Assembly (NCBI GenBank): GCA_963803805.1
Contig: CAWDOD010000001.1
Coordinates: 1-64,000 of the forward strand
DNA: 64,000 nucleotides
Source: an uncultured cyanobacterium
GTDB lineage: Bacteria > Cyanobacteriota > Cyanobacteriia > Cyanobacteriales > CAWCAG01
Direction of reading: 5' to 3'
Shown here one piece after another: positions 1 through 30,194 of the stretch; the first letter of the stretch is position 1; each line of letters begins with the position of its first letter. Both the position numbers and the translations under genes were made by a program. The notes under the pieces are model-generated. The model saw nothing but the letters and a program-made list of their open reading frames with translations. It made no database searches and was not told where the DNA came from.

Positions 1-353
1 AGGGTTTTTTAAAAGAATTAACTGATTTATCTTTTGTCTTGCAAAAGGACTATTTATCGGTAAATGTTGTGTTGATTTTAAAAAATCAAGAAAGTCAATC
101 TCTGTTATCACTAGGTTTAGAAGTTTTTTGAGTTTAGCTAAAAAGCTATTCTAATTGTCATTTAAGCCCGAAAGTTCATCGCCTCGGAGATTCGCTGAAA
201 CCCTCATTGTTTCGTGGAGGTGATGAATCCCTTGTTCTACAGAGCTTAGAAGTGCTTTCTCTCTGTTGTTTTTATCGTCAACATGAGTGTTTTAGGGAGG
301 TGATGAAAAACCGCTTCTAGACACCAGGCAGAGCAAGGGTTTAAAATGAGAGG

Positions 354-742
354 GTTGCGACTTCCATTAGGAAGTAAAGAAGTTGAAACACCACCAATGC
401 CAGATTTGCCATTTCCGCACTTTTTCGTTGCGACTTCCATTAGGAAGTAAAGAAGTTGAAACAATTTAAAGTTGGTAGAGTTCCTTCTAAATCAGACAAG
501 TTGCGACTTCCATTAGGAAGTAAAGAAGTTGAAACGAATACGTTACTATCTAGTCCGATTTTATATGTGAAGGGTTGCGACTTCCATTAGGAAGTAAAGA
601 AGTTGAAACGGTTTTACCCATTTTGTTTCTCCTTGATTAATCTAGTTGCGACTTCCATTAGGAAGGAATCAAGTTGAAACTCTTTATAAGCTAGTTTATC
701 AGTCTGGAAATAGAGCTGTTGCGACTTCCATTAGGAAGTAAA
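354..742 (+). CRISPR. Mirror copy of array 26461-26850
   Basis: Repeat GTTGCGACTTCCATTAGGAAGTAAAGAAGTTGAAAC; same spacers as the main-arm array. Confidence 0.93.
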
Positions 743-995
743 ACTGAATACTGTACTCTTTTTGAGTATGGAATAACTAAGTTAGGTGACAATAAGTATT
801 TGGAAGCTATTTAATTTAGGTAGTTAGCAAAGGAGGTAGTCAAAGGGAATTGCCCTTTTTCCAGACTAATAATAGTTAGTATTTTGGGCATTTTGCACCT
901 GAAGCCCGTAAGTCATAGCACGATTTTACCAGCAAGTATTGACATTTTTGTCACCGTGTATTTAATAAAAATGTCACAGAAACCAAGAAGTAAAA

Positions 996-1711
996 GTGAA
1001 TACTCAATATCAAACATCAATAGAAAAATTACCGGCTCACGTAAGCCAAAAACTGGTAGAAAAAGGGATGAATTTTATCCAGTCTTTAGGACTAGAACCT
1101 GAGAAAGGTATACCTGTATTGATGATATGTAATCCAGATGAAACCGCAATTTTTTTCAACCCAGACGGCGAACCTGCTCACGTAGAACTTTTAGTTATTA
1201 AGGTTGAGTTCTGATCTAGAAGATGGGAAAGGAAAGTTCTCGTCAGGGTTTATAGCTTAAAATTGCCACTTACAATGAGGTGATTGCTTATTACTTTAGA
1301 ATGGGTAGGCAAGTCTTTACACAAAGGGTTTCTACTAAAAGAGTATACAGAAGAAAGAAAGAAAATTTTACCTAAAAAAATCTACATTAATGTGGAAACA
1401 GGACAAGAGTTTTGTACAAAGTCAACACCTAGCAAAGAACTTTTAATCGAGGCCAATAGTTTTCTGCGAGAAACGGCTAAAAAGCTTCCTTCTGGAAGCT
1501 TTAGAAGCATTCTTTAGGATAGATTATGAGAATGGATATTGCTATGAAGGCAATATCCTTGACCTATGTTCTAATTATAAATCCTCAATAAAAGAGCATT
1601 GTAAATGTTACACAGATTGGTGCGGAAAGAATTATAAGGCTACCGGTATGAGAAGAGTACCTCAAAGATCATTAGAGTAAAATCGAATTTCTTAAGAAAT
1701 ACGCAGCGTAG
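996..1711 (+). pseudogene. Mirror copy (frameshifted) of hypothetical protein 25497..26207
   Basis: Fragments 996..1214 and 1284..1517 match the 236-aa ORF. Confidence 0.75.
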
Positions 1712-2250
1712 CATCAATACCTTTAGCTGTATTATTGTTCAGCTAAAGGTATGGTTCTTGTCACAGAAACCACAAGCATTTTACCATGACAACTCCTGAC
1801 CCTCAAAAAAAATACAATCACTCCGAAAAAGGACGTAGCAGCCGCAGGAAGTACAACAAAAAAAACAGGCAGAAGTTAGAAGAGAAAAGAGGCGACCGCA
1901 AAGGAATGTGCGGTCTTTGCAAAAGAATAAGATGGCTTGTCAGAAAAAAACCTCCTATATGTTGACTTGCTTCCGCAAGGCAAATAAAGCAGCAATCCCT
2001 GATACTAGCAGCCATGTCAATTAAAATTAGGCTAGCTTCAACTAGCCTAATTTGTAGAGGCAAGAAATGTGGACAATTTGTCCACACCATAAGCTACTGA
2101 GATTGTAGTTACAAAATCATCAGTAGCTTTCTTGTAACCATCCATAAGTACTTAGACAAAATTAATTGAACATTTTGCTGAGATCGGGAACGGGGAACGG
2201 GGAACGGATGTATAACTAAATGGTAAATATACAAAGAATTTTGTACGACT

Positions 2251-2989
2251 ACTTACTTCCTCAAAAAAAAGTCAACAGTTCAAACAACATCATGAATATC
2301 AAAGGATCTGGTCATCGATTATCGCCAAAACTTCAGACAAAGGAGAACAAAACATAGCCATAGACAGGCGAACAAACAAACGTTACAACCGTATCATCGA
2401 CAAAGAATTTCAAAGCATACTAACCCCTAGACCCAACGACCATGGAGAAAACGACCTCAACTCTGCCACAGACTTAAGAAGTGCTTACCTATGCTTAGCT
2501 GTAGCCCGTGACGTTCAAGGTAGCATGACAGCCAAAACAATAGCCGCAGCTAAATTAGCAGGGCATCTAATCGAAGGAGAAAATGGTCAAGCCTTAACAG
2601 ACGCAGACCTAAGCAAACTAACCTACTCAATAGGCTACGGAGCTTACTATGTACCAGATGGAGTAGAAGTTCCCTTACTTGAGCTTCCCTTTTTCATCAG
2701 AAGCAAATATTGAACAACTACAACCAGAAGAAGATAAAGAAGAAAAAACTGAAATAGAACAGCTAAGACAGCAGTTGGAAAGTTACCAGAAAAGTAGTCA
2801 AGAAAGAATCAACCAGTTAGAAGAAAAAGTTAACCAGTTAGAAACATCACTTAAGCAGCAGAAACTTCAAGCTGAATCTCAACCGAAAACAGTCCAAATA
2901 AAGAGCAAAACTCAAACCAGGGACTGGGAGAGTATCAGCAGAAAAACCAACTTTTTGGTTTAGGGAAACATGAACACCCGGTCAGAGGA
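2251..2989 (+). pseudogene. Mirror copy of the internal protelomerase fragment
   Basis: Reverse complement of about 24222-24955. Confidence 0.75.
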
Positions 2990-3879
2990 AAGCTTCAACA
3001 AATCCAACTCCTCAGCCTGTAAAACCTTAGCCTCCATCGCCTGCAAATCTGCTGCCACAGGCTCCACATCCGCAAAATCAAAATACTCTGTTAGTTTGCC
3101 TAAAGGATAATTGTCATCCTTGTAACGGTGTTTAAAGTAAAGTTCTACATTACCCCTATGAGCCAAGTGCCTAATACTTCTATGTGAAGCTTGCCTAAAT
3201 GCTTTCTGACATCTCTAGTCACCTCAGCTACTCGTTCCTCAATAGTGCGTTTAGTAACACCAATTTTGTAAATGGTTTTTGCGGAGGTAGACACCCTTAA
3301 AAAGTAGAGTTGGAGTTCTAAAATACGCCGCAATTGGGCGCAATACATTTGCCAGTCGGCTTGTTTCACAGCTAAAGAAGCTGAATTAGTGAGCTTAGCT
3401 ATGTTAAAGGCAGAGTGAAATTGCTGCAACTTCTCCAGGAGTAAAGGTTCCTGAACTTGGTTAAACTCTTGGAGAGACAAGGCATTGACAGGAATCTTAC
3501 CCAAGTTAGTGAAGCCATAGCCAGGGGGTTGTAGTTGATTATTCCAAGCAAAAAGCTTCTTCAAAACCAGACTAAAAGGGACATGGACAGGAGAATAGTT
3601 CGTATGACCATATTCTCGCCATAGTTGTTGATGTTGTAGCAATTCCTGGGGAGAAAGATGGAGGTGAAAATTGTCGTAAAGGGGTAAAGAAGGGACTTTG
3701 CGGCGGGCCACTAGTTTACAAGTAGCATGGCTATGTGCAAAGTGATGAACTTTAACCTTACCTTTCTTAGCAGTTAAAGTATCGCCACAGTAAAGGCAAA
3801 TCAAATTAGTTTTACCTTTGGGTACATCTTCGACAGGAATGAGGTTGCCATCTTCGGCCAGACCATATTTGAGCCACAT
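2960..3879 (-). CDS. Mirror copy of CoiA-like Zn finger / GIY-YIG-like protein (frameshifted near the C-terminus)
   Basis: N-terminus is intact here (MWLKYGL...CLYCG...HHFAH); the main-arm copy has an intact C-terminus. Confidence 0.7.
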
Positions 3880-4035
3880 AAAACAGGAACTAATAGAACA
3901 AAAGTACTTATTCTAACAGCTACTGCTAAGCTGAGTAACTGTGGTGATGCTTCCTGATTTTTGATTTGATGCTAAAAAGTGCAAGTTAGTATGGAAGTTA
4001 TTGCGTATAAAGTGACTAAAAGAAATCAGACTAGT

Positions 4036-4682
4036 GTTTCAACTTCTTTACTTCCTGATGGAAGTCGTGACTCAAATAGAGAAGAAATAAGACTAGAAAG
4101 ATGGAAGAGTTTCAACTTCTTTACTTCCTAATGGAAGTCGTGACTGCGGAAATTAAAATAGCCCAAGTGGGCTATCCATGCGTTTCAACTTCTTTACTTC
4201 CTAATGGAAGTCGTGACACCCAGGCGATGAGGAAAGTTCCTCCCGCTGACCCCTACCCGTTTCAACTTCTTTACTTCCTAATGGAAGTCGTGACTTGTAG
4301 TGACAAGAACGCCCGCAGAAAAAATATTTGGGTTTCAACTTCTTTACTTCCTAATGGAAGTCGTGACATACAGAAGACACTTTCTTCTGGGCAGAATGAT
4401 AAAAAATATGTTTCAACTTCTTTACTTCCTAACGGAAGTCACGACGAGGCTGATATTCATGACAAGTGTCAGAAGAGATTCATTCGTTTCAACTTCTTTA
4501 CTTCCTAACGGAAGTCACGACAACATAGTCTAATGACTTTAAAGTGTACGAAAAACTTAGAGAAGTTTCAACTTCTTTACTTCCTAACGGAAGTCACGAC
4601 CTTTCTAGCGTACTTATCGATTATGAGGAACAATCACAATCAGTGCGTTTCAACTTCTTTACTTCCTAACGGAAGTCGTGAC
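4036..4682 (-). CRISPR. Mirror copy of array 22542-23171
   Basis: 9 repeats GTTTCAACTTCTTTACTTCCTAAYGGAAGTCRYGAC (one with a CCTGATGG loop); same spacers with errors. Confidence 0.93.
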
Positions 4683-5582
4683 CCCCTCATTTTAAACCCT
4701 TACCCTGCATAGTGTCTAGAAGCGGTTTTGGGCCATCCCCTAAAAACATCTATGTTGACGAATAAAACAATAAGAAAAAAGCACCTCAAATCCTTACAGA
4801 GTAATGGATGGGCCATCTCAACGAAAGAATGGGGGTTTCAGAGATTTTCTGAACATGCCCGCAACTAGACTTAAATGACAGTTGAACCATGATCTTTCGT
4901 AATAGGAAGACCACCCCAAACCTCTACCCTATCTAAGTTATGCCCTGAGATAGGATAAAATCTCAAACTATCTTCCTTTATATCTATCCTATCTTTAAGG
5001 CGAAAACGTAATTCAGCGTATTTTTCATCTTGAGCATTAATTTCTGTCTTATTAATCAACCTCAAAACTAAAGAATCTACCAGACTCCTTCACTTATTAC
5101 CAATGAGCAATAGGCAAGGAGGTTGAAGCCTTTTTGTTTAACTTTTATCAGGCTCATCCGCTAAAGCGTAGCAAGGCGATCGCAAAGAAAGGATTTCGTA
5201 AAATCGTATTCAGGCAGATGCTTCAGCTACCAAGGAAACAACTTCCTAGTTTTCTTAGCTGAATCACTAACACTAGTAACTATTTTGCTCATTGCGCTGC
5301 TGTTGCGTACCAGAAATAGGCTTTCTCTTCAGGTCATGGGTAGCAACGATTTCACCTGTCATCAAAGCTTCCTGGGACCTCTCCGGGAAAGTAGAGCGAT
5401 CACCTAGCTTTGCCCTTGTCTCTTGGTAAAGACTTATCGTATTGCAACCTAAAACTTCTTGAGTTAAAGCTTCTGTAGATTTCTTGTAACAGCTAGCATC
5501 CCCGCCTTTGTCTTTAATAGTTTTAGTAAAGTTTTTGCGAACTGTAGCTCCATCAACTCTAAACTGCTCTAGAGAGGGCTGT

Positions 5583-6903
5583 GACCTGATTGACTGACAA
5601 AAAATATTAGGTAGAGAGGAAATACCAAAGAGGAGAAAGAGATTGACGGAGTTGACAAACAGGAGGGGAGTCTCCGATTGTGAAAGAAAGAAACCACTCA
5701 AATCTTTCGCAATACGATGAAAAAAAACTCCCCTCTTTTACAATGCCTTGAATTCATGGCTAGGTCAAGGCAGCAATTGGAAACATCAAACACATCTGGT
5801 AACTTGCATCTGGATAATATTTGCCCTAATTCATACAGGTAGCGTCAATCTAACTAAATGGTCTGTTTATATACCTTGCCGAGGGCTATATGCTCAAAGC
5901 AAGCAAAGGCGTATTCAAAGGTGGTTGAATAATCCTCGAATCAATATACACAGACTCTATCAACATCTAATTAAAGCAGCACTAGACACTTGGCAAGAGC
6001 CGAGCATCTATTTAGGATTGGATACATCGATGTTTTGGGAAGAATATTGCTTGGTACGCTTATGTGTAATCCATAGAAGGAGGGCATTACCTGTAGTGTG
6101 GCGAGTGATGAGACACAAAAGTGCGAGTGTGTGTTTCAGAGATTATCAACAAATGCTTCAACAAGCACAGAGGAGATTACCAACAGGAGTAAAGGTAATA
6201 CTCTTGGCAGATAGAGGATTTATTCATAGTGAGTTGATGGAAATGTTAACCAAGCAACTGGGATGGCACTATCGCATTCGGCTCAAAAGTAATAGCTGGA
6301 TATTTCGAGGAGGTAAGGGCTGGTGTCTAATTAAGGATTTCCACTTCAATCGGGGAGAGGCAATTTGTTTACATCATGTCATGCTCCATAACAATCTCCT
6401 TATCTCAATTAGTCCATGTAGTTGTGTGTCGTACAACGTAAACGGTGAATTTTGGGCTATTGTCAGTGATGAAAAAACTACTCTACAGACTTTTTGCTGA
6501 ATATGGGTTACGCTTTGACATTGAAGAAAACTTTCTTGATGACCAGTCCCAAGCCTGGAATATACAACGCTCTTCGATAAGAAATGTCTGTGCCTTGTCT
6601 AGGTTGTTTTTTATTAGCTGTTCGGCTACCCTCAGCCCCCAAGGGGTCGAAGTTGTCGAGTTGCGAAGGCGGAAGATGGGTTTATGCTCATTGGTTTCGT
6701 GGCAAAGCTATCTTCGTATTGGTTGGGATTGGGTCAAGGGAGCCTTAATTCAAGGATGGAAACTTATTGATAGGGTTTGCTTTAGGAGACAGCCAAGACC
6801 CCTCACCTGCTATGGCTTCACGAAAGCAGCACCAAAAACGACTCTATCAATTTGAGTTCCAGGCCCAGTATATGCAACAACATAAGTTTTGTCAGTCAAC
6901 CAG
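5583..6903 (+). mobile_element. IS4-superfamily DDE element (mirror copy, more complete than the main-arm copy)
   Basis: TIR CCTG(A/G)TTGACTGACAAAA; motifs LADRGF and RFDIEENFLDDQS. Confidence 0.8.
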
Positions 6904-8048
6904 GGGGAAGCCTTTCATCAAGACTGCAAAGGTCCCATAAGGGTTGATGTGATTCCAAATGAGTGGAGTCAAGGCGCGAAAATCATCAGCTTGCATTTTG
7001 CTCATCCATGCAGAATCAGACAAAACCTCCTGTATCATCAAAGTATTAATGTAAACCAAAATAGACTGCAAAAGGTGCAAAGACAAAGCAGCATCTCTGG
7101 TTGTAAACGATTAGTAGTAATCTCTCAGCCTTAAACTTTCCAACTCTCAACAACATTAAGCCCCTCATTAACCTCCGACGCAGAGACTCAGAATGAGTGA
7201 CAAGAAAATAGTCTTAAGAGCCTTACCCAACTCTGCCAAAGCCCGATAAGTAGGATGAGTCAAATTAGAACGAGTAAAACGCTTCAGAATAGCCTCAGTC
7301 TCAGCAGTACCCAACCTCAGAGCAGTAGCATACTTAATCATTTGGCTATGCCTTAGTCGAACAAACCTCAATAGCTTAGAAAAGGGAGAATTTGAGAGAA
7401 ATTAAGAGAAAAGTTGAAGCTCTAAAAGGAAGTCAATACAAGTAAAAAGAAAGCAACAAAAAAGTTAAAAATAATCAAAAAACAATTAGAGTAATAAAGA
7501 TAGATGTAGAAGTGCTTAAAAGAAGTAAAAGAAAGTACAAAAAAGCCAGAAAGCAGACAGAGAAAGAAAAAGAAATCACGAATTTACAGAAAGTAAAATA
7601 AGTCAACAGAAAGTGGTAAAAACGCGAGTAAATAGTCTCGTAAAAGTGAAGATAAAAAAGAGAAAAGAGAAAAAGAAAACTAACGACTAGAAAAAAAAGG
7701 TCAATAAATAAAAGAAAAAACCTGAAAACTTTGTTTGACAAGGCATAGAAGAGAAAAAATAAGTAAAAATAAAGGAAAGAGATAATATAATATAAACAAT
7801 AGAAGCAAATTGTCAAACTAGACAATAAAGTAAAATGTGAGTAAAGCACAAAGACAGCTAAAAAAATAGAAAAATAACTTCATAAATCGAAAATAAAACA
7901 ACCTTTACTTCTTAACTAGTTTAAGAGATAAAATAGACTGAAGCAACGCACGTAGAAATAAGAGACGTTAGTAATAAATAAAAAGAAAATGTGAGTAGGC
8001 AGGCAAGAAGCATCAATATTCTTCAAATAGCATCAGGGAGGAAGAAAG

Positions 8049-9412
8049 ATGAATTGGGTAACTGAAGAACTTAAGTATGCAGACTTAGGAGATACAAGGA
8101 GAAACAAACGATTAGTAAAAATAGTAGAAGACTTAGCAGGTAGCCAAGCGCCAGCGTCACTCAAGCAGCAAGAGATGATGCAGCACTTCAAGGGTTGTAT
8201 GACTTTTGGTCTCAAACAGACGGATAAAACTAGGAAAGATTATCAAAGCACATACAGCCAAAACAAGTGAGCGAATCTCCGAGCTAAACTATGTAATCTC
8301 TTAATCCAAGACACAAGCAGAATCAGTATTATAGCCATGCAGTGGAGCTCAGTGGAGACAGGCAAGGATTAAAAGTCCACTATGTGCGAATACATCGGGG
8401 AGGACCGATGGACCAATAGGACAGAAAGTATGGGCTAGAGAGAAAAAGCATCGTAGCTCAGAACAAGAAGAAAAGAAAAAGACATAGAAAGTGGAGTCTC
8501 AACGCTGGATAGAAAGCCTAGAAAAGAGTCAAGAAGCATTACCATCAGGAGTAAGAGGAATAACAGTAGCCGACAGAGAAGCAGATATCCACAAGCTTCT
8601 GGTCGAATTACACAAACAGCTAGAAACGGCATTCATCATTAGAGCTTGCCAGAATAGGACGAAGCATAGAGTTAATTGAACAGAAGAGGAAGAAAAACAA
8701 CCACTATGGGATGCAGTGCGAGAGTTGCCCAGAAAAGGAAAAATAACTATCAAACTACAGAGAACACCGAAAAGGAAAAAAGTGGGCTACAGCTCTTCCT
8801 GTCTATAAGGTATGGAACAGTACCATTAAGACCACCGAACAGCAGAAGAAAAAAAAGGAAAGCTACAAATCAAAGAATACTGGCAGAAGAAGAAAATCCA
8901 CCACCAGGAGGAAGAGCCAGTAGTGTGGCTATTACTAACAAGTTTAGAAGTAAACAGCTTAAAGCAAAGCGAAAAAATTCTTGAGACCGTAACTTACTCG
9001 TTGGTTGATAAGAGGATCATTACACCTTAAGAGTGGCTGTAACCTAGAAAAACTGCAAACTAAGAAAAGCAGAGCGTATAGAAAGAGCCTTAGAAACCTA
9101 CAGCATAGTAGCCTGGAGTACTGCTATGGTTAATCTACTCTTCAAGGGAACACCCAGAGCAACCAGCAACAGTAGCCTTGAGTGAAGAAGAATGGCTGCC
9201 TCTGTACTTCACCATTCATCAAGACACCATCGGAAAAACGACACCAATACCTAGAAGCCACCAACAATCTATCAATGTGTAAGATGGATAGCCAGTTTAG
9301 GAGGATTTTTAGGGAGAAAATGTGATGGAGAGCCAGGAGTAAAAACATTGTGGCGAGGGATGCAAAGATGAAAGATATTGTGAGGAACCTGGACAATGCT
9401 CTGGTCGAGTAT
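8049..9412 (+). mobile_element. IS4 (IS50/Tn5-like) transposase, mirror copy, heavily frameshifted
   Basis: Matches 18034..19421. Confidence 0.8.
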
Positions 9413-9585
9413 AATAGAGCCGCTAATGGAGCAGTTGGGAGAGCTTCAACAAAGCTCACGGCCTACGTTACTAAAGCTTATAATATTTGTAAGAGAATCG
9501 AATTAGGTTTAATAACCAGTTAGAGAACTTGTACATTTAACCAGTTATTATAAACTATAACCAGTTAAGTAAAGAGAACTGAGGA

Positions 9586-15687: not shown

Positions 15688-16079
15688 AACTTTTACTAGA
15701 TACACAATGCTGGTTATGGTGGTTTGCTCAACCAGAAAAGTTAAGTGAGAAGGTGATTGAACAAATTGCTGATGAAACCAATGAAGTTTGGTTTTCCGTT
15801 GCTAGCGTTTGGGAGATGGGAATTAAGGTTTCTATTGGTAAGTTACCACTACCAGAGCCAATAGATGATTATGTCTCTACTCGAATGAGGAGACTAGGTG
15901 CTAGATCCTTAGAGATTACTGCTAGTCATGCTTTGCGAGTGGCTGCGTTGCCTTTACATCATCGTGATCCTTTTGACAGAATGCTCATTGCACAAGCTCA
16001 GTTAGAAGATATGACGCTTGTGAGTGCAGATTCAACTTTTAATCAATACGAAGTTTCTTTACTCTGGGCAGCTAGTTAA
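15684..16079 (+). CDS. vapC: PIN-domain toxin VapC
   Basis: LLLDTQ, SVASVWEMGIK, HRDPFDRMLIAQA, LVSAD motifs. Confidence 0.95.
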   Translation: MKLLLDTQCWLWWFAQPEKLSEKVIEQIADETNEVWFSVASVWEMGIKVSIGKLPLPEPIDDYVSTRMRRLGARSLEITASHALRVAALPLHHRDPFDRMLIAQAQLEDMTLVSADSTFNQYEVSLLWAAS

Positions 16080-16140
16080 GGAAGAGTTGATTTGCTCAAC
16101 TGGTTATTATTTACTTAACTGATTGTCTGGTTTATACAGA

Positions 16141-17848
16141 TTACGCTATTAGTTCGATGAGCATTTCCGGATTCCTATGAGGTTCTGGCTTATGTCTGCT
16201 GTTGTGATAGTTGTCAGGTTGACCATCTTTGGTTAAGCCATGCTTGTTGATATGGTCGAGGATGTAGTGGTTATGGGCATCAAACCATTTTCTGATTAAC
16301 TGGGCGTTACTGCCTGATATTGAACGGATTAACTGGGTGTTGGGAATTACTTTTTTTTCTTTGCTCTGCTTGTGGAGAGAACTGGTTGTTCCATTTCATT
16401 ACTGCTTCTACTGAACGCCTGATTCTCTCTTCTGCTGAACCTCTCCCCCTAGCTGGCTTTTCATGTTCCCCTAGACCAAAAAGTTCGTCTTTGCTGATAC
16501 TCTCCCAGTCCCTGGTTTGAGGTTTGCTCTTTATTTGGACTAATTTCGGTTGAGATTCAGCTTGAAGTTTCTGCTGCTGAAGTATGTCTTCTAACTGGTT
16601 AACTTTTTGCTTCTAACTGGTTGATTCTCTCTTGACTACTTTTCTGGTAGCTTTCTAGTTGCTGTTTTAGTTGTTCTATTTCAGTTTGTTGTTGCTGTTC
16701 TGGTTTGCTCTGACTCTGGTTGGATGTTTTGATGAGGAGGGGAAGGGAGCCTTTCTGATTAAGGGTACTTTTATTCCATCTGGTACATAGTAGGCTCCAT
16801 AGCCTATTGAGTAGGTTAGTTTACTGAGGTCTGCGTCTGTTAAGGCTTGACCATTTTCACCTTCGATTAGATGCCCTGCTAGTTTGGCTGCGGCTATTGA
16901 TTTGGCTGTCATGCTACCTTGAACGTCACGGGCTACTGCTAGAGCACAGGTAAGCACTTCTGAGGTCGGTGGCAGAGTTGAGGTCGTTTTCTCCATGTTC
17001 GTTGGGTCTGGGGGTTAGTATGCTTTGGAAGTGTTTGTCGATGATACGGTTGTAACGTTTGTTTGTTCGCCTGTCTATGGCTCTGTTTTGTTCAGCTTTG
17101 TCTGAGTACCTATTTGGCAACGATTGATGACCAGATCCTTTGATATTCATGATGTTGTTTGAACTGTTGACTTTTTTTGAGGAAGTATTTTGCTTCTACT
17201 AATGCGGCGATCGCAAATTCTGGTATGACAGTGTTTTCTCTTTTTTTGCCTTGCCCTGAGAACATGACTGCCCATTTCTCACCTTCGATGGGACTAAATT
17301 CTCCTCTGAATAGTTCGTGGGGTCTTCTTCCAGAGGCGGCTATTAGTCCTGCTCCCAGGTGAGCAAAGTCGGGGTTTTCTAGTAGTTGGTAGGTTTTTTC
17401 TATGTGTTGAGTCTGGTTTTAGATGGTAGCTTTGAGCGTTTTTGGCTCTTTCTAAGATGCGGGTGGTTTTGTTACGTTTTTCCCACTCGTCGGGAATTTT
17501 ACCGTCTGGGTAGAATTTTGATTTACTTAGACCACAGTATTTGAAGAAGTAATGTTTTAGTTCGTAGGCTCTAATGTTGCCATTGCCGTCTAGTTTGGTG
17601 GTTTTTTGGGCGTTTTTTCCTTCTACTAGAAGTATGCTTTTGATGAGTTTGTTGTAGCCTGCGCTGCTCATTTTGCTCCCCAAGGAGGAGACGGAAAAAC
17701 GATTTCTCAGATATTTGTCTTCTTGAGAGGCTATTTGAGCAATCTCATCTTCGCTCATTAAGGGACGTATTGCCTCAACTACTAGCTTGGCTCGTTCTTT
17801 GAGGTTACTTTGTTTTTTTGCTTCCTCGTATATCTGTTGAGATTTCAT
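16141..17848 (-). CDS. Protelomerase / telomere resolvase, about 570 aa if indels are corrected
   Basis: Across frames: GLIAASGRRPHEL (catalytic R), FSGQGKKR (K), DLRSAY (RxxY), KLAGH (H), YSIGYGAYY (Tyr nucleophile region). Followed by a coiled coil and a C-terminal domain ending MLIELIA*. Motif order resembles TelN/TelK/TelA. Confidence 0.85.
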
Positions 17849-17865
17849 TCCTCAATTGCTCTTTA

Positions 17866-17926
17866 CTTAACTAGTTACAGTTTATATTAACTAGTTAATC
17901 TAGGCAAGTTTCTCTAACTGGTTATT
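17866..17926. promoter_or_regulatory. Three TAACT(A/G)GTTA palindromic boxes upstream of the protelomerase gene
   Basis: TAACTAGTTA twice and TAACTGGTTA once within 60 bp of the start codon region. Confidence 0.45.
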
Positions 17927-18033
17927 AAACCTGATTCGATTCTCTTACAAATATTATAAGCTTTAGTAACGTAGGCAGTAAGCTGTTTTTAACATTTCCC
18001 AAAGCTCTCCCAACTGCTCCATTAGCGGCTCTA

Positions 18034-19421
18034 TTATACTCGACCAGAGCATTGTCCAGGCCCAGCAATATCTTTCAGTCTTTGCATCCCTCGCCACAAT
18101 GTTTTTACTCCTGGCTCTCCATCACATTTTCTCCCTAAAAATCCTCCTAAACTGGCTATCCATCTTACACATTGATAGATTGTTGGTGGCTTTTCTGGTA
18201 TTGGTGTCGTTTTTCCGATGGTGTCTTGATGAATGGTGAAGTACAGAGGCAGCCATTCTTCTTCACTCAAGGCTACTGTTGCTGGTTGCTCTGGGTTTTC
18301 CCTTGAAGAGTAGATTAACCATAGCAGTCTCCAGGCTACTATGCTGTAGGTTTCTAAGGCTCTTTCTATACGCTCTGCTTTCTTTAGTTGCAGTTTTTCT
18401 AGGTTACAGCCACTCTTTAAGGTGTAATGATACCGCTCTATCAACCAACGGTAAGAGTACAGTTCTAGAATTTTTTCGCTTTGCTTTAAGCTGTTTACTT
18501 CTAAACTTGTTAGTAATAGCCACACTACTGGCTCTTCTCCTGGTGGTGGATTTTCTTCTTCTGCCAGTATTACTTGAGTTGTTAGCTTTTCCTTTTTTTC
18601 TTCTGCTGATGCTGACTCCGGTGGTCTTAATGGTACTGTTCCATACCTTATAGACAGAAGAGCTGTCCTCACTTTTTTCCTTTTCGGTGTTCTCTGTAGT
18701 TTGATAGTTATTTTTCCTTTTCTGGGCAACTCTCGCACTGCATCCCATAGTGGTTGTTTTCTTCCCTTCTGTTGATTAACTCTATGCTTCGTCTATTCTG
18801 GCAAGCTCTAATGATGAAGTCCGTTTCTAGCTGTTTGTGCCTGACCAGAAGCTTGTGGATATCTGCTTCTCTGTCGGCTACTGTTATTCCTCTTACTCCT
18901 GATGGTAATGCTTCTTGACTCTTTTCTAGGCTTTCTATCCAGCGTTGAGACTCCCGCTTTTCTATGTCTTTTTTCTTTTCTTCTTGTTCTGAGCTACGAT
19001 GCTTTTTCTCTCTAGCCCATACTTTCTGTCCTATTAGTCCCATCGGTACTCCCGATGTATTCGCACATAGGGTTGAGTGGACTTTTAATCCTTGCCTGCC
19101 TTCTCCACTGAGCCTTCCCATGCCTTGTTTGTGCTGATGGCTATAATCTAGTTCTGTTGTGTCTTGGATTAAGAGTACATAGTTTAGCTCGGAGATTCGC
19201 TCACTTGTTTTGGCTGTATGTGCTTTGATAATCTTTCCTAGTTTTATCCGTCTGTTAGACCAAAAGTCATACAACCCTTGAAGTGCTGCATCATCTCTTG
19301 CTGCTTGAGTGACGCTGGCGTTAGGTTGCTCTGCTAAGTCTTCTACTATTTTTACTAATCGTTTGTTTCTCCTTGTATCCCCTAAGTCTGCATACTTAAG
19401 TTCTTCAGTTACCCAATTCAT
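18034..19421 (-). mobile_element. IS4 family (IS50/Tn5-like) transposase, one frameshift near 18740-18770
   Basis: LGDTRRNKRL, IQDTTELDY, VADREAD, YSYRWLIERYHYTLKSGC, LGGFLGRKCDGEPGVKTLWRG. Confidence 0.92.
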
Positions 19422-20103
19422 CTTTCTTCCTCCCTGATGCTATTTGAAGAATATTGATGTTCTTATTGCACTCTCACATTTTCTTTTTATTTATTACTAA
19501 CGTCTCTTGTTTATACATCGTTACTAGTTATTTTATCTCTAAACTAGTTAAGAAATAAAGGTTGTTTTATTTTCGATTTATGAAGTTATTTTTCTATTTT
19601 TTTAGCTGTCTTTGTGCTTTACTCACATTTTACTTTATTGTCTAGTTTGACAATTTGCTTCTATTGCTATATTATATGTCTCTGTTATTATTTCTCTTTA
19701 CTTATTTTTTCTCTTTAATCCTTCTATGCCTTATCAAACAAAAGTTTTCAGGTTTTCTTTTATTTATTGACTTTTTTTTCTAGTCGTTAGTTTTCTTTCT
19801 CTTTTCTCTTTTTTATCTTCACTTTTACGAGACTATTTACTCGCATTTTTACCACTTTCTGTTGACTTATTTTACTTTCTGTAAATTCGTGATTTCTTTT
19901 TCTTTCTCTGTCTGCTTTCTGGCTTTTTTGTACTTTCTTTTACTTCTTTTAAGCACTTCTACATCTATCTTTATTACTCTAATTGTTTTTTGATTATTTT
20001 TAACTTTTTTGTTGCTTTCTTTTTACTTGTATTGACTTCCTTTTAGAGCTAAACTTTACCTCTTAATTTCTCTCAAATTCTCCCTTTTTCTGAGACTTTT
20101 CTA

Positions 20104-20619
20104 TTGAGGTTTGTTCGACTAAGGCATAGCCAAATGATTAAGTATGCTACTGCTCTGAGGTTGGGTACTGCTGAGACTGAGGCTATTCTGAAGCGTTTTA
20201 CTCGTTCTAATTTGACTCATCCTACTTATCGGGCTTTGGCAGAGTTGGGTAAGGCTCTTAAGACTATTTTCCTTTGTCAGTATCTTCATTCTGAGTCTCT
20301 GCGTCGGGAGGTTAATGAGGGGCTTAATGTTGTTGAGAGTTGGAACCGTGCTAATGGCTTTATTTTCTTTGGTAAGGCTAGAGAGATTACTACTAATCGT
20401 TTACAAGACCAGGAGATTGCTGCTTTGTCTTTGCACCTTTTGCAGTCTTGTTTGGTTTACATTAATACTTTGATGATACAGGAGGTTTTGTCTGATTCTG
20501 CATGGATGAGCAAAATGCAAGCTGATGATTTTCGCGCTTTGACTCCACTCATTTGGAATCACATCAACCCTTATGGTACTTTCCGTCTTAATCTTGATGA
20601 AAGGCTTCCCCCTGGTTGA
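20104..20619 (+). pseudogene. Tn3-family transposase C-terminal fragment
   Basis: [48 protein letters not shown]; abuts the IS end at 20611. Confidence 0.9.
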
Positions 20620-21641
20620 CTGACAAAACTTATGTTGGATGATAAGAGTAAGTTTGCACCTGGAACTCAAATTGATAAAGTCGTTGTTGATGTTGCTTGC
20701 GTGATGCCATAGCCGGTGAAGGGTCTTGATTAGTCCTAAAGCAAACTCTATCAATGAGCTTCCATCCCTGAATGAAGGCTCCTTTGACCCAGTCCCAACC
20801 AATACGCAGATAACTGTTACCACGAAACCAATGAGTATCAACCCATCTTCTCTTCTGGGACTCGACAACCTCAACCCCTTGGGCGCTCAGGTAGAGGGTA
20901 GCCACAGCCAAGATAAAGAACAATCTCGACAAGGCACAAACATCTCTAATGGATGAACGTTGAATATTCCAGGCTTGGGACTGGTCATCAAGGAAATTCT
21001 CTTCAATGTCGAAACGTAAACCATATTCAGAAAAAGTTTGTAGAGTGGTTTTTTCATCACTGACAATAGCCCAGAACTCTCCATTGACATTGTCACGCCC
21101 CACAATGACATTGACTAACCGAGACTCAGTCTGTTTATGTAGTCCCACATGATGTAAACAAAGTGCCTCTCCTCGATTAAAGTGGAAATCTTGGAGTTGA
21201 CACCAGCCTTTTCCTCCTCGTTTTATCCAGCTACTCTTTTTCAACCGAATACGATAATGCCATCCTAATTGAGTGGTCAACATCTCCATCAACTCACTAT
21301 GAGCAAACCCTCTATCTGCCAATAGTATTACTTTTACCCTTGCTGGTAATCTTTTGTCTGCTTGTTGGAGCATTTGTTGATAATCTCGGAAAGATACACT
21401 AGGGCTACTATTATCCAGATACAGGTTGTTAGATGCCCAAGATGTTTCCAATCGCTGCCTTGACCTAGCCATGAATTCAAGGCATTGTAAAGAGGGGAGC
21501 TTTTTTTCATCGTATTGCGAAAGATTTGAGTGGTTTCTTTCTTTCACAATCGGCGGCTCCCCCCCTTTTGTCAACTCCGTCAATCTCTTTCTCCTCTTTG
21601 GTATTTCCTCTCTACCTAATATTTTTTGTCAGTCAATCAGG
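20611..21641 (-). mobile_element. IS4-superfamily element with internal deletion
   Basis: TIRs CCTGGTTGACTGACAAAA / TTTTGTCAGTCAATCAGG. Transposase lacks about 300 bp present in the mirror copy. No target duplication visible. Confidence 0.85.
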
Positions 21642-21998
21642 TCACAGCCCTCTCTAGAGCAGTTTAGAGTTGATGGAGCTACAGTTCGCAAAAACTTTAC
21701 TAAAACTATTAAAGACAAAGGCGGGGATGCTAGCTGTTACAAGAAATCTACAGAAGCTTTAACTCAAGAAGTTTTAGGTTGCAATACGATAAGTCTTTAC
21801 CAAGAGACAAGGGCAAAGCTAGGTGATCGCTCTACTTTGCCGGAGAGGGACCAGGAAGCTTTGATGACAGGTGAAATCGTTGCTACCCATGACCTGAAGA
21901 GAAAGCCTATTTCTGGTACGCAACAGCAGCGCAATGAGCAAATAGTTACTAGTGTTAGTGATTCAGCTAAGAAAACTAGGAAGTTGTTTCCTTGGTAG
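21642..21998 (+). pseudogene. 5'-truncated hypothetical gene (weak DinD-like resemblance)
   Basis: Open frame begins at the IS boundary; the family guess is by eye only. Confidence 0.4.
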
Positions 21999-22196
21999 CT
22001 GAAGCATCTGCCTGAATACGATTTTACGAAATCCTTTCTTTGCGATCGCCTTGCTACGCTTTAGCGGATGAGCCTGATAAAAGTTAAACAAAAAGGCTTC
22101 AACCTCCTTGCCTATTGCTCATTGGTAATAAGTGAAGGAGTCTGGTAGATTCTTTAGTTTTGAGGTTGATTAATAAGACAGAAATTAATGCTCAAG

Positions 22197-22354
22197 ATGA
22201 AAAATACGCTGAATTACGTTTTCGCCTTAAAGATAGGATAGATATAAAGGAAGATAGTTTGAGATTTTATCCTATCTCAGGGCATAACTTAGATAGGGTA
22301 GAGGTTTGGGGTGGTCTTCCTATTACGAAAGATCATGGTTCAACTGTCATTTAA
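22197..22354 (+). pseudogene. cas2: cas2 3' half
   Basis: YAELRFRLKDRIDIKEDSLRFYPIS...RVEVWGG...STVI* matches the Cas2 C-terminus. The N-terminal YD motif is absent. It directly precedes a leader. Confidence 0.8.
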
Positions 22355-22541
22355 GTCTAGTTGCGGGCAGTCTCAGAAAATCTCTGAAACCCCCATTCTT
22401 TCGTTGAGATGGCCCATCCATTACTCTGTAAGGATTTGAGGTGCTTTTTTCTTATTGTTTTATTCGTCAACATAGATGTTTTTAGGGGATGAGCCAAACC
22501 GCTTCTAGACACTATGCAGGGTAAGGGTTTAAAATGAGGGG
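22355..22541 (+). promoter_or_regulatory. CRISPR leader (type A)
   Basis: Ends CCGCTTCTAGACACTATGCAGGGTAAGGGTTTAAAATGAGGGG; near-identical to 41309-41496. Confidence 0.85.
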
Positions 22542-23171
22542 GTCACGACTTCCATTAGGAAGTAAAGAAGTTGAAACGACTGATTTTGATTGTTACTCAT
22601 AATGATAAGTACCTAGAGGTCACGACTTCCATTAGGAAGTAAAGAAGTTGAAACTTCTCTATTTTTGTACACTTTAAAATCCTTAGAATTCGTCACGACT
22701 TCCATTAGGAAGTAAAGAAGTTGAAACGAAGAATTTTCTGGACTTGTCATAAAATCAGACCTCGTCACGACTTCCATTAGGAAGTAAAGAAGTTGAAACA
22801 TATTTTTTATATTCTGCCCAGAAGAAAGTGTCTTCTGTATGTCACGACTTCCATTAGGAAGTAAAGAAGTTGAAACCCAAATATTTTTTCTGCGGGCGTT
22901 CTTGTCACTACAAGTCACGACTTCCATTAGGAAGTAAAGAAGTTGAAACGGGTAGGGGTCAGCGGGAGGAACTTCCTCATCGCCTGGGTGTCACGACTTC
23001 CATTAGGAAGTAAAGAAGTTGAAACCATGGATAGCCCACTTGGGCTATTTTAATTTCCGCAGTCACGACTTCCATTAGGAAGTAAAGAAGTTGAAACTCT
23101 TCCCATCTTTCTAGTCTTATTTCTTCTCTATTTGAGTCACGACTTCCATCAGGAAGTAAAGAAGTTGAAAC
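22542..23171 (+). CRISPR. CRISPR array, 9 repeats / 8 spacers
   Basis: 36-bp GTCACGACTTCCATTAGGAAGTAAAGAAGTTGAAAC at 22542, 22619, 22692, 22764, 22841, 22914, 22990, 23062 and 23136. Orientation from the leader and the GAAAC 3' end. Confidence 0.98.
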
Positions 23172-23327
23172 ACTAGTCTGATTTCTTTTAGTCACTTTAT
23201 ACGCAATAACTTCCATACTAACTTGCACTTTTTAGCATCAAATCAAAAATCAGGAAGCATCACCACAGTTACTCAGCTTAGCAGTAGCTGTTAGAATAAG
23301 TACTTTTGTTCTATTAGTTCCTGTTTT

Positions 23328-24229
23328 ATGTGGCTCAAATATGGTCTGAGCCGAAGATGGCAACCTCATTCCTGTCGAAGATGTACCCAAAGGTAAAACT
23401 AATTTGATTTGCCTTTACTGTGGCGATACTTTAACTGCTAAGAAAGGTAAGGTTAAAGTTCATCACTTTGCACATAGCCATGCTACTTGTAAACTCAGTG
23501 GCCCGCCGCAAAGTCCCTTCTTTACCCCTTTACGACAATTTTCACCTCCATCTTTCTCCCCAGGAATTGCTACAACATCAACAACTATGGCGAGAATATG
23601 GTCATACGAACTATTCTCCTGTCCATGTCCCTTTTAGTCTGGTTTTGAAGAAGCTTTTTGCTTGGAATAATCAACTACAACCCCCTGGCTATGGCTTCAC
23701 TAACTTGGGTAAGATTCCTGTCAATGCCTTGTCTCTCCAAGAGTTTAACCAAGTTCAGGAACCTTTACTCCTGGAGAAGTTGCAGCAATTTCACTCTGCC
23801 TTTAACATAGCTAAGCTCACTAATTCAGCTTCTTTAGCTGTGAAACAAGCCGACTGGCAAATGTATTGCGCCCAATTGCGGCGTATTTTAGAACTCCAAC
23901 TCTACTTTTTAAGGGTGTCTACCTCCGCAAAAACCATTTACAAAATTGGTGTTACTAAACGCACTATTGAGGAACGAGTAGCTGAGGTGACTAGAGATGT
24001 CAGAAAGCATTTAGGCAAGCTTCACATAGAAGTATTAGGCACTTGGCCTCATAGGGGTAATGTAGAACTTTACTTTAAACACCGTTACAAGGATGACAAT
24101 TATCCTTTAGGCAAACTAACAGAGTATTTTGATTTTGCGGATGTGGAGCCTGTGGCAGCAGATTTGCAGGCGATGGAGGCTAAGGTTTTACAGGCTGAGG
24201 AGTTGGATTTGTTGAAGCTTTTCCTCTGA
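23328..24229 (+). CDS. CoiA-like Zn-finger plus GIY-YIG/T5orf172-like nuclease domain protein
   Basis: CLYCG...KVHHFAH; LYFLRV...IYKIGVTKRTIEERV. Indels differ between arms, so the gene is probably intact. Confidence 0.7.
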
Positions 24230-24955
24230 CCGGGTGTTCATGTTTCCCTAAACCAAAAAGTTCGTTTCTGCTGATACTCTCCCAGTCCCTGGTTTGAGTT
24301 TTGCTCTTTATTTGGACTGTTTTCGGTTGAGATTCAGCTTGAAGTTTCTGCTGCTTAAGTGATGTTTCTAACTGGTTAACTTTTTCTTCTAACTGGTTGA
24401 TTCTTTCTTGACTACTTTTCTGGTAACTTTCCAACTGCTGTCTTAGCTGTTCTATTTCAGTTTTTTCTTCTTTATCTTCTTCTGGTTGTAGTTGTTCAAT
24501 ATTTGCTTCTGATGAAGAGGGAAGCTCAAGTAAGGGAACTTCTACTCCATCTGGTACATAGTAAGCTCCGTAGCCTATTGAGTAGGTTAGTTTGCTTAGG
24601 TCTGCGTCTGTTAAGGCTTGACCATTTTCTCCTTCGATTAGATGCCCTGCTAATTTAGCTGCGGCTATTGTTTTGGCTGTCATGCTACCTTGAACGTCAC
24701 GGGCTACAGCTAAGCATAGGTAAGCACTTCTTAAGTCTGTGGCAGAGTTGAGGTCGTTTTCTCCATGGTCGTTGGGTCTAGGGGTTAGTATGCTTTGAAA
24801 TTCTTTGTCGATGATACGGTTGTAACGTTTGTTTGTTCGCCTGTCTATGGCTATGTTTTGTTCTCCTTTGTCTGAAGTTTTGGCGATAATCGATGACCAG
24901 ATCCTTTGATATTCATGATGTTGTTTGAACTGTTGACTTTTTTTGAGGAAGTAAG
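24222..24955 (-). pseudogene. Second, internal fragment of the protelomerase gene
   Basis: Close copy of about 16445-17190 (DLRSAY, LAGH, coiled coil); lacks the N-terminal GRR/K motifs and the C-terminus. Confidence 0.85.
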
Positions 24956-25182
24956 TAGTCGTACAAAATTCTTTGTATATTTACCATTTAGTTATACATC
25001 CGTTCCCCGTTCCCCGTTCCCGATCTCAGCAAAATGTTCAATTAATTTTGTCTAAGTACTTATGGATGGTTACAAGAAAGCTACTGATGATTTTGTAACT
25101 ACAATCTCAGTAGCTTATGGTGTGGACAAATTGTCCACATTTCTTGCCTCTACAAATTAGGCTAGTTGAAGCTAGCCTAATT

Positions 25183-25422
25183 TTAATTGACATGGCTGCT
25201 AGTATCAGGGATTGCTGCTTTATTTGCCTTGCGGAAGCAAGTTCGACATATTGGAGGTTTTTTTCTGACAAGCCATCTTATTCTTTTGCAAAGACCGCAC
25301 ATTCCTTTGCGGTCGCCTCTTTTCTCTTCTAACTTCTGCCTGTTTTTTTTGTTGTACTTCCTGCGGCTGCTACGTCCTTTTTCGGAGTGATTGTATTTTT
25401 TTTGAGGGTCAGGAGTTGTCAT
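25183..25422 (-). CDS. Small basic hypothetical protein (CxxC ... CxxC)
   Basis: MCGLC...PICRTC suggests a Zn finger; follows the 236-aa gene on the same strand. Confidence 0.45.
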   Translation of the reverse strand: MTTPDPQKKYNHSEKGRSSRRKYNKKNRQKLEEKRGDRKGMCGLCKRIRWLVRKKPPICRTCFRKANKAAIPDTSSHVN

Positions 25423-25455
25423 GGTAAAATGCTTGTGGTTTCTGTGACAAGAACC

Positions 25456-25491
25456 ATACCTTTAGCTGAACAATAATACAGCTAAAGGTAT
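25456..25491. terminator. Stem-loop downstream of 25497..26207
   Basis: ATACCTTTAGCTG ... CAGCTAAAGGTAT inverted repeat. Confidence 0.6.
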
Positions 25492-25496
25492 TGATG

Positions 25497-26207
25497 CTAC
25501 GCTGCGTATTTCTTAAGAAATTCGATTTTACTTAAATGATCTTTGAGGTACTCTTCAATACCTGTAGCCTTATAATTCTTTCCGCACCAATCTGTGTAAC
25601 ATTTACAATGCTCTTTTATTGAGGATTTATAATTAGAACATAGGTCAAGGATATTGCCTTCATAGCAATATCCATTCTCATAATCTATCCTAAAGAATGC
25701 TTTGAAAAAGCTTCCAGAAGGAAGCTTTTTAGCCGTTTCTCGCAGAAAACTATTGGCCTCGATTAAAAGTTCTTTGCTAGGTGTTGACTTTGTACAAAAC
25801 TCTTGTCCTGTTTCCACATTAATGTAGATTTTTTTAGGTAAAATTTTCTTTCTTTCTTCTGTATACTCTTTTAGTAGAAACCCTTTGTGTAAAGACTTGC
25901 CTACCCATTCTAAGTAATAAGCAATCACCTCATTGTAAGTGGCAATTTTAGTCATAAACCCTGACGAGAACTTTCCTTTCCCATCTTCTAATAACTCAAC
26001 CTTAATAACTAAAAGTTCTACGTGAGCAGGTTCGCCGTCTGGGTTGAAAAAAATTGCGGTTTCATCTGGATTACATATCATCAATACAGGTATACCTTTC
26101 TCAGGTTCTAGTCCTAAAGACTGGATAAAATTCATCCCTTTTTCTACCAGTTTTTGGCTTACGTGAGCCGGTAATTTTTCTATTGATGTTTGATATTGAG
26201 TATTCAC
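25497..26207 (-). CDS. Hypothetical protein
   Basis: 236-aa ORF, no recognised motif. Confidence 0.7.
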   Translation of the reverse strand: MNTQYQTSIEKLPAHVSQKLVEKGMNFIQSLGLEPEKGIPVLMICNPDETAIFFNPDGEPAHVELLVIKVELLEDGKGKFSSGFMTKIATYNEVIAYYLEWVGKSLHKGFLLKEYTEERKKILPKKIYINVETGQEFCTKSTPSKELLIEANSFLRETAKKLPSGSFFKAFFRIDYENGYCYEGNILDLCSNYKSSIKEHCKCYTDWCGKNYKATGIEEYLKDHLSKIEFLKKYAA

Positions 26208-26460
26208 TTTTACTTCTTGGTTTCTGTGACATTTTTATTATAATACACGGTGACAAAAATGTCAATACTTGCTGGTAAAATCGTGCTATGACTTACGGGC
26301 TTCAGGTGCAAAATGCCCAAAATACTAACGATCATTAGTCTGGAAAAAGGGCAATTCCCTTTGACTACCTCCTTTGCTAACTACCAAAATTAAATAGCTT
26401 CCAAATACTTATTGTCACCTAACTTAGTTATTCCATACTCAAAAAGAGTACAGTATTCAG

Positions 26461-26850
26461 TTTTACTTCCTAATGGAAGTCGCAACAGCTCTATTTCCAG
26501 ACTGATAAACTAGCTTATAAAGAGTTTCAACTTCTTTACTTCCTAATGGAAGTCGCAACTAGATTAATCAAGGAGAAACAAAATGGGTAAAACCGTTTCA
26601 ACTTCTTTACTTCCTAATGGAAGTCGCAACCCTTCACATATAAAATCGGACTAGATAGTAACGTATTCGTTTCAACTTCTTTACTTCCTAATGGAAGTCG
26701 CAACTTGTCTGATTTAGAAGGAACTCTACCAACTTTAAATTGTTTCAACTTCTTTACTTCCTAATGGAAGTCGCAACGAAAAAGTGCGGAAATGGCAAAT
26801 CTGGCATTGGTGGTGTTTCAACTTCTTTACTTCCTAATGGAAGTCGCAAC
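26461..26850 (-). CRISPR. CRISPR array, 5 full repeats plus 1 truncated, GTTGCGAC repeat variant
   Basis: Repeats at 26524, 26595, 26669, 26742 and 26815; leader 26851-27045 lies downstream of the cmr operon. Confidence 0.97.
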
Positions 26851-27215
26851 CCTCTCATTTTAAACCCTTGCTCTGCCTGGTGTCTAGAAGCGGTTTTTCA
26901 TCACCTCCCTAAAACACTCATGTTGACGATAAAAACAACAGAGAGAAAGCACTTCTAAGCTCTGTAGAACAAGGGATTCATCACCTCAACGAAACAATGA
27001 GGGTTTCAGAGAATCTCCGAGGTGATGAACTTTCAGGCTTAAATGACAATTAGAATAGCTTTTTAGCTAAACTCAAAAAACTTCTAAACCTAGTGATAAC
27101 AGAGATTGACTTTCTTGATTTTTTAAAATCAACACAACATTTACCGATAAATAGTCCTTTTGCAAGACAAAAGATAAATCAGTTAATTCTTTTAAAAAAC
27201 CCTATTCAAACAACC

Positions 27216-30182: not shown

Positions 30183-30194
30183 TAATATTAATCC

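Follow-up and report, generated by a model that had tools for sequence, protein, structure and literature searches.

A probable hairpin telomere and a neighbouring protelomerase gene at an end of a putatively linear plasmid-like replicon from an uncultured cyanobacterium

The window, i.e., the first 64 kb of contig CAWDOD010000001.1 (C1; 159,974 bp), was taken from the genome of an uncultured cyanobacterium (GCA_963803805.1, here G000; 11 contigs, 5.3 Mb, 40% G+C). Its cyanobacterial origin agrees with the XisI and GUN4 domains encoded in the window and with the relatives obtained by genome search, which all belong to a single order of this phylum. The window begins with DNA which is folded back on itself, and a gene for a protelomerase (telomere resolvase) is located close to the axis of the fold. 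Is this fold-back the trace of a hairpin telomere, around which the sequence was read or assembled, or is it an internal palindrome or an accident of assembly? It is concluded here that a hairpin telomere, covalently closed, very likely has its tip at positions 13784/13785 and forms one end of a linear plasmid-like replicon; this estimate includes a variant with long repeats at both ends, which is discussed below. Support comes from the tip sequence, which is conserved at the ends of other protelomerase replicons, and from the lone gene with a protelomerase domain, which is found 2.36 kb away and points to the axis.

The fold and its tip

Self-alignment showed arm 1 (1-13784), at the start of C1, to be arm 2 (13785-27203) in reverse complement. 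The diagonal is crossed at 13784, and the mirror extends to the contig start; the 27-kb fold-back described in an earlier note on this DNA was thus reproduced with the same axis. The parts are as follows:

1..13784, no strand assigned: arm 1, very probably a mirror copy from reading or assembling round the hairpin and not additional unique DNA (self-alignment)
13772..13796, no strand assigned: fold-back centre and putative telomere tip, reading TGTCCGTTAATC-T-GATTAACGGACA
13785..27203, + strand: arm 2, real sub-telomeric DNA, continuous with the rest of C1 (self-alignment; match to a contig of run X1)

Identity between the arms amounts to 98.2% for 1-5828 versus 27203-21400, 90.5% for 6126-13065 versus 21400-14287, and 90.9% for the 507 nt nearest the axis (13277-13783 versus 14291-13785). 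The outer 5.8 kb of arm 1 are well polished, mostly with 97-99.7% identity per kb to arm 2; the differences in the inner 7.6 kb are chiefly of the deletion type, and most are small insertions or deletions (indels). Around the axis an assembly error of about 10% was noted, with noise on both sides. A second source of sequence was the public metagenome run X1 (Logan contigs), which contains 41% of the words sampled from 22000-31900. One of its contigs, of 653 nt, matched 13963-14614 with no mismatch and one gap. On 13735-31000, 217 short X1 contigs were placed; none of the 13 joints listed switches strand at the fold, and these contigs are uninformative about the fold either way.

The centre reads as the earlier note had given it, yet a palindromic centre is formed automatically, by construction, in any fold-back, and therefore it is no independent evidence of a telomere. 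Comparisons with relatives were more instructive. When the intact protelomerase of G001, a genome of the same genus, was used as a query, 400 other genomes of the phylum yielded close homologues (E <= 1e-10) in four cases (G161, G281, G259 and G299); PF16684, the catalytic domain of ResT and TelK, was present in 7 of 60 other relatives. The proteins of G161 and G281, two genomes of the same order, showed 38% and 39% identity, respectively, to the query. In G281, a genome of three contigs, contig C2 (378,280 bp) carries a protelomerase gene which ends 958 nt from the right end, and its left end is a perfect 98-nt palindrome with ACTGTCCGGTAATCTA and GATTACCGGACAGT meeting at the centre. In G161, contig C53 (22,857 nt) has a protelomerase gene at 1641-3563 (- strand), at a distance of 1.6 kb from the left tip. 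Each end of this contig carries a perfect 106-nt palindrome centred between GTCCGTTAATTTA and AATTAACGGAC, and there is a 636-nt perfect terminal inverted repeat. Besides the protelomerase, C53 encodes a 1297-aa replication-type protein with DUF3854, a tyrosine recombinase and a Gp49/HigB-like protein (L056 and L071); it has the appearance of a small linear plasmid in full length, whose two hairpin ends were both read through. The mirrors of 49-53 nt in G281 and G161 are of short-read scale only. In all three replicons the protelomerase gene is located 1-2.4 kb from an end and points toward that end. The right tip of G281:C2 is absent from the assembly, and a 119-aa protelomerase fragment was noticed at 7842-8129, near the palindromic end (L052/L053).

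Read inward, the tips compare as follows:

Window: GATTAACGGACA, with a mirror of more than 13 kb
G281:C2, left end: (A)GATTACCGGACA, exactly in the middle of a perfect terminal palindrome (arms of 49 nt)
G161:C53, both ends: (A)AATTAACGGACA, exactly in the middle of perfect terminal palindromes (arms of 53 nt)

The sequence TGTCCG(T/G)TAAT is nearly the same at all of these ends. Counted from the tip, 11 of 12 bases of the window are identical to G281:C2, and 12 of 13 to G161:C53. A core CGGACA, preceded by ATTA(A/C), is common to the three, and a central TA is present in G281 and G161. Beyond about 13 nt the flanks diverge, except that CAGAAAT and some other short blocks, roughly 25-35 nt from the tip, are common to the window and G281. 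The 400 other genomes of the phylum were searched with a 24-nt tip pattern in which 20 bases were fixed. Exact matches were confined to three contig ends, all belonging to G281 or G161, which are two of only four sampled genomes with a close protelomerase homologue; two more matches, with two mismatches each, were unrelated palindromes in other genomes. With a CTAG-centred pattern, 400 genomes of the order yielded both ends of G161:C53 and one asymmetric site with three mismatches. The window itself is missed by the tip patterns, since its centre is a single base instead of the TA of the relatives. Because the motif marks the ends of two other replicons with homologous enzymes, a random chimeric fold would not be expected to land there, and 13784/13785 is therefore taken to be, very probably, a genuine tip. 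This supports the proposal of the earlier note that 13784 is the physical end of a replicon.

A half-site with 19 fixed bases gave no match in the genome or viral contig collections, and BLAST of 316 nt of sub-telomeric sequence against five relatives gave nothing significant (best E 0.03). The 20-base central palindrome was found in two genome contigs (a Paludibacteraceae metagenome-assembled genome and Sphingomonas) and one metagenome contig, in short local hairpins with no protelomerase by tblastn, and these were dismissed as chance matches. Likewise, a 57-nt stem-loop near the protelomerase gene of G037:C32 was not a telomere-like palindrome. On contig G019:C11 (8.2 kb; L026) a perfect 105-nt inverted repeat (1-128 and 3805-3909) flanks a distant protelomerase homologue; this may be another telomere-related structure in a short-read assembly. 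In the literature, a main-text search, with supplements outside its scope, found the motif strings in no telomere paper (unrelated primers only).

The protelomerase gene

Three stretches of the fold-back are related to this gene:

16144..17848, - strand: protelomerase (telomere resolvase) gene, broken into at least five frames as assembled
9586..11235, + strand: its mirror copy in arm 1, with a set of frameshifts different from that of arm 2
24210..24953, - strand: partial second protelomerase copy, in a single frame, corresponding to residues 221-457 of the G001 orthologue (68% identity)

PF16684 matched 17047-17418 (- strand) with 57.1 bits (E 4.7e-15; cut-off 27) and, in the mirror, 10145-10516 (+ strand) with 40.1 bits; individual fragments of the gene scored 55 and 35.9 bits. 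In a profile search of the 5.3-Mb genome, no PF16684 match was obtained outside the C1 gene and its mirror. The G001 orthologue (553 aa) served as the reference for the extent of the gene and for changes of frame. Accordingly, the gene spans about 17848 to 16144 (- strand) and is directed toward the tip, with 2.36 kb between its 3' end and the axis. The motifs GRRPHE, GQGKK, DLRSAY, AGH and SIGYGAY are all readable in arm 2, in different frames, in agreement with the gene with protelomerase motifs which had been reported 2.4 kb from the fold.

An alignment of 11 cyanobacterial homologues showed R175, K201, R295, H324 and Y348 to be invariant (11/11). These residues align with R255, K286, R366, H394 and Y405 of TelA, which are listed as its active site, with Y405 as the nucleophile, in the legend of figure S2 of PMC3558466. 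The position of TelA Y363 is not conserved across the 11 aligned proteins. A profile of the same homologues matched TelA (E 8e-24), TelK (1.8e-23) and ResT (1e-11). A telomere-resolvase profile search, which the earlier note had proposed for the corrected protein, has thus given a match above the cut-off with the sequence as assembled, and membership in the TelA/TelK/ResT-type protelomerase family is confirmed as judged by profiles and aligned residues.

The partial copy, which has a mirror at 2264-2989, shows 88% identity to the main gene at the DNA level; an earlier telomere module, or a recombination between ends, may have left it behind.

Points against a telomere, and competing explanations

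Several observations, brought together in this section, weigh against a hairpin tip, and each has to be considered together with the explanation to which it would lead.

The first concerns the assembly itself. All 11 contigs were screened over 60 kb from each end for inverted self-matches of at least 1 kb, and fold-back tails were found at 3 of the 22 contig ends, on C1, C4 and C8. The tail of C4 covers 1-13306 (axis 6568, 90% identity; L012) and that of C8 covers 1-19781 (axis 9806, 92% identity; L013). Both folds are situated among chromosomal housekeeping genes, and the C8 fold falls inside an open reading frame, truncating a fatty-acid-hydroxylase-like gene; the G001 orthologue continues for another 290 residues, for which tblastn gave no match in the assembly. 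At the C4 fold, gene order is not conserved with G001. In C4 and C8 the identity between outer and inner arms is 86-97% per kb, deletion-type differences predominate, and genes which are intact in the inner arms are broken in the outer ones. Outer arms of raw-read quality with broken genes are the signature of a single raw chimeric read, and both tails are probably chimeric long reads, which should be trimmed. Since artefactual fold-backs were evidently made by this assembly, a fold-back alone proves nothing here. The C1 tail could then have arisen in the same way, from a chimeric read which extended the contig end at an arbitrary position, with no telomere at all; the noisy sequence on both sides of the axis would fit this explanation, as do the two clear tails with unrelated centres, one of them inside a gene. 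Nevertheless, it is considered highly improbable. The C1 fold lies within 2.4 kb of the sole protelomerase gene of a 5.3-Mb genome, and its centre carries the motif known from the terminal palindromes of two protelomerase replicons and found exactly nowhere else in 400 genomes, whereas the centres of C4 and C8 are unrelated to that of C1 and to one another, and the motif is absent from both. Scattered fold points, which the earlier note had named as evidence that would refute a telomere, are therefore present in part in this assembly (C4 and C8), but the fold of C1 differs from them by its conserved motif.

The centre of the fold is odd, having a single T, and a resolved junction should be an even palindrome. 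By comparison with G281 and G161, TA is the probable reading, the odd T being a one-base error of the assembly, and the core would then be TCTAGA; at the same place the core of G161 is TTTAAA. Another difficulty is presented by G001, where the orthologue is located in mid-contig beside type III CRISPR (clustered regularly interspaced short palindromic repeats)-Cas genes and arrays, and the tip motif is absent. In that genome (G001:C8, 7458-16773; L025) the protelomerase gene is directly beside cas10, and CRISPR arrays follow further along the contig. As a separate observation, a protelomerase gene near a type III CRISPR-Cas locus is seen in both genomes of the genus (G001, and 16144-34972 of the window).

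Both copies of the protelomerase gene are frameshifted as assembled, with at least four changes of frame in arm 2 and at least two in arm 1. This could suggest a pseudogene, and in that case the fold might be a real internal palindrome, a telomere junction or inverted duplication left unresolved for want of an active enzyme, the arms of which later diverged by acquiring mobile elements. The structural differences between the arms (see below) would be in keeping with this possibility. The frameshifts, however, are placed differently in the two copies, and many of the indels (1-8 nt) are outside homopolymers and of the raw-read type, as is expected of sequencing noise and not of a fixed pseudogene; the gene may well be open in the cell. 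Long palindromes with a perfect centre are unstable in bacteria. Moreover, the mirror ends exactly at the contig start, like a read-through tail, and the tip is conserved with replicons which end there. An internal palindrome is thus judged to be improbable, if somewhat less so than a chimeric read.

The arms are not exact mirrors. Arm 1 contains stretches of 212 nt and 298 nt which are absent from arm 2, and they are related to two elements:

13065..13277, no strand assigned: element of 212 nt resembling a miniature inverted-repeat transposable element (MITE), in arm 1 only, with short terminal inverted repeats
20606..21641, - strand: insertion sequence (IS) copy of arm 2, with a 296-nt internal deletion relative to two copies on C11

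The MITE-like element is flanked on both sides by ATAT, of which arm 2 has a single copy. It belongs to a family of about 200 nt with terminal inverted repeats ATATCCCTCTT and AAGAGGGATAT, and diverged copies were found on C2, C3, C4 and C5; the difference is a MITE-like insertion and not a sequencing error. The mirror of the IS in arm 1 (5585-6909) has the full length of 1.3 kb and differs from the arm 2 copy by about 10% substitutions. When sites were compared with the C11 copies, arm 1 agreed with C11 against arm 2 at 90, arm 2 agreed with C11 against arm 1 at 52, and the two arms agreed with each other against C11 at 42. One molecule read on both strands cannot give such an insertion, nor the indel and substitutions of the IS. 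At least two versions of this DNA have therefore gone into the arms; they could come from two ends that bear long inverted repeats, or else from variants within a mixed population, and the telomere stands either way.

The first of these choices would be a replicon, or a pair of replicons, with terminal inverted repeats of at least 13 kb and a protelomerase copy at both ends, arm 1 coming mostly from the other end and being joined through the shared hairpin tip. It is a variant of the telomere interpretation and not a denial of it. In addition to the MITE-like insertion with its ATAT flanks and the differing IS at the mirrored site, it is favoured by similar numbers of arm-private substitutions in the protelomerase gene (48 in arm 1, 35 in arm 2), by the quality of the outer 5.8 kb of arm 1, mostly 97-99.7% per kb versus 86-97% in the single-read tails of C4 and C8, and by the 636-nt terminal inverted repeat of G161:C53. 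On the other hand, the inner 7.6 kb differ mostly by small indels, with frameshifts private to each copy, which resembles raw-read noise; no contig carries on from the outer end of arm 1; and a mixed population with MITE and IS variants explains the differences equally well, X1 being filed as a metagenome. Repeats of this length are possible, although on the unlikely side.

A linear replicon should have another end. No second tip or sub-telomeric copy was found in the 11 contigs, which is an absence from a fragmented assembly only, and the 3' end of C1 is ordinary sequence and not a telomere. A 12-mer of the tip, allowing one mismatch, had 16 matches in G000 besides the tip half-sites; all were away from contig ends, and their number was not above that of a reversed-pattern control. 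Any second contig end of this replicon would be expected to carry ATTAACGGACA. The linear replicon of the earlier note is supported at one end only. Among the remaining contig ends, the last 100 nt of C7 consist of a (CT)n/(CTT)n low-complexity run between poly-A stretches, probably an assembly break at a simple repeat.

The replicon and its relation to known systems

Next to the tip there are about 1.6 kb devoid of long frames, and further inward a toxin-antitoxin pair and the protelomerase gene follow. The other genes include:

15430..15687, + strand: Phd/YefM antitoxin, intact in arm 2, between the tip and the protelomerase gene
15684..16079, + strand: PIN-domain toxin, intact in arm 2, in the same interval
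18034..19439, - strand: IS4/Tn5-type transposase in two overlapping frames (domain matches)
20053..20619, + strand: fragment of a Tn3-family transposase (domain matches)
27216..34972, - strand: type III-B (Cmr) CRISPR-Cas genes for repeat-associated mysterious proteins (RAMP), with Cas10/Cmr2 at 31305-33527
45562..46482, - strand: parB (Pfam)
46492..47259, - strand: parA (Pfam)
60442..62325, - strand: type IV secretion coupling protein, TraG/VirD4/TrwB-like (Pfam)

Between the Cmr genes and parAB there are two XisI genes, more transposases and a NACHT-GUN4 protein, and a 2128-aa methylase-helicase is encoded beyond parAB, before the coupling protein. The partition genes, VirD4-like ATPase and type III CRISPR-Cas genes listed by the earlier note were all recovered, and parAB together with the coupling protein are counted in favour of a linear plasmid. 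Its description as probably conjugative is supported in part, by the coupling protein as a single element. Among the Pfam matches in 21-64 kb, which comprised plasmid, CRISPR and transposon genes only, no phage structural genes were found (a PHROGs search was not made). At 27216-30942 the Cmr/RAMP genes occur as overlapping pairs of frames (378+183, 119+151 and 116+163 aa), and the corresponding genes of G001 are undivided (621, 302 and 371 aa); either residual assembly indels or real decay of the CRISPR-Cas system could account for this.

By analogy with TelA, TelK and TelT, the following course of events may be proposed. When the hairpin is replicated, the end would be duplicated into a head-to-head palindrome in which TGTCCGTTAATCTA directly adjoins GATTAACGGACA. 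A protelomerase dimer would bind the two half-sites and cut both strands a few bases apart around the axis, with a predicted stagger of 6 bp around TCTAGA; cleavage would pass through a phosphotyrosine intermediate at Y348. Each strand would then be rejoined to its own complement, giving two covalently closed hairpins. Finally, long reads, the assembler or both could have run round the closed end, by which arm 1 was appended.

A more extensive interpretation, which is tentative and rather doubtful as a whole, combines three parts. The window, G281:C2 and G161:C53 would represent a distinct telomere family with the tip TGTCCG(T/G)TAAT(C/T)TA, ending at the axis, a core T(C/T)TA(G/A)A and an own protelomerase clade. 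The replicon would be a transfer-capable linear plasmid of at least 146 kb with type III-B CRISPR-Cas. At either end it would have an inverted repeat of at least 13 kb which includes a protelomerase copy; these repeats would be arranged similarly to those of poxviruses and be undergoing remodelling by MITE, IS and toxin-antitoxin insertions.

As regards practical consequences, the putative enzyme now has a candidate target which can be specified, namely the terminal 30-40 bp around TGTCCGTTAATCTA, and the two natural site variants from G281 and G161 should make the determinants of specificity readable by half-site swaps. For long-read assemblies, the lesson is that the initial 13.8 kb of C1, being a mirror, should be cut off; the similar-looking tails of C4 and C8, by contrast, are probably artefacts.

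Among known systems, TelA is the best structural relative of the family profile. The active-site R, K, R, H and Y align, and, like the target of TelA, the candidate target proposed here is palindromic, with a putative 6-bp core and a central dinucleotide step. Differences are the Tyr363 of TelA, which is not kept in the cyanobacteria, an identity of about 25% or less, and the target sequence; in Agrobacterium, telA is not known to be adjacent to a telomere. TelN with telRL of phage N15 and TelK of phage phiKO2 (PDB 2V6E) resemble the window in having the enzyme gene beside its own palindromic site. N15 and phiKO2 are enterobacterial phage-plasmids, whereas the window shows plasmid genes (parAB, coupling protein, CRISPR-Cas). 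ResT of Borrelia (PDB 8VS5) is a member of the same superfamily but a distant relative of the window enzyme. Its gene is not known to be telomere-adjacent, and Borrelia possesses multiple linear plasmids with hairpin ends. Long reads which run through the telomere are reported for Borrelia (PMC13601366; 10.1101/2025.07.18.665644).

Replicons of the TelT/LoPAST type have in common with the window the phylum, a protelomerase gene near a contig end and a terminal inverted repeat. TniQ (PF06527) and Mu-transposase_C (PF09299) were not found in the genome, the latter in a search without a positive control, and the window is therefore not regarded as a protelomerase-associated transposon (PAST); these are characterized by TnsB-TnsC-TniQ, whereas the transposases here are of the IS4/Tn5 and Tn3 types. 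Cyanobacteria are named among bacteria with hairpin telomeres in the introduction of PMC3558466. Passages of 10.1101/2024.11.13.623437 report many putative cyanobacterial protelomerases, as well as cyanobacterial contigs which end in inverted repeats attributed to hairpin read-through. According to the same passages, TelT of the LoPAST element of Leptolyngbya ohadii resolves a telomere inverted repeat into hairpins and needs half-sites of at least 28 bp. Hairpin-telomere replicons of cyanobacteria are a kind already described, and the window adds another to it: not a new kind of system, but a large plasmid with partition, transfer and CRISPR genes which joins a short list of hairpin-ended cyanobacterial replicons.

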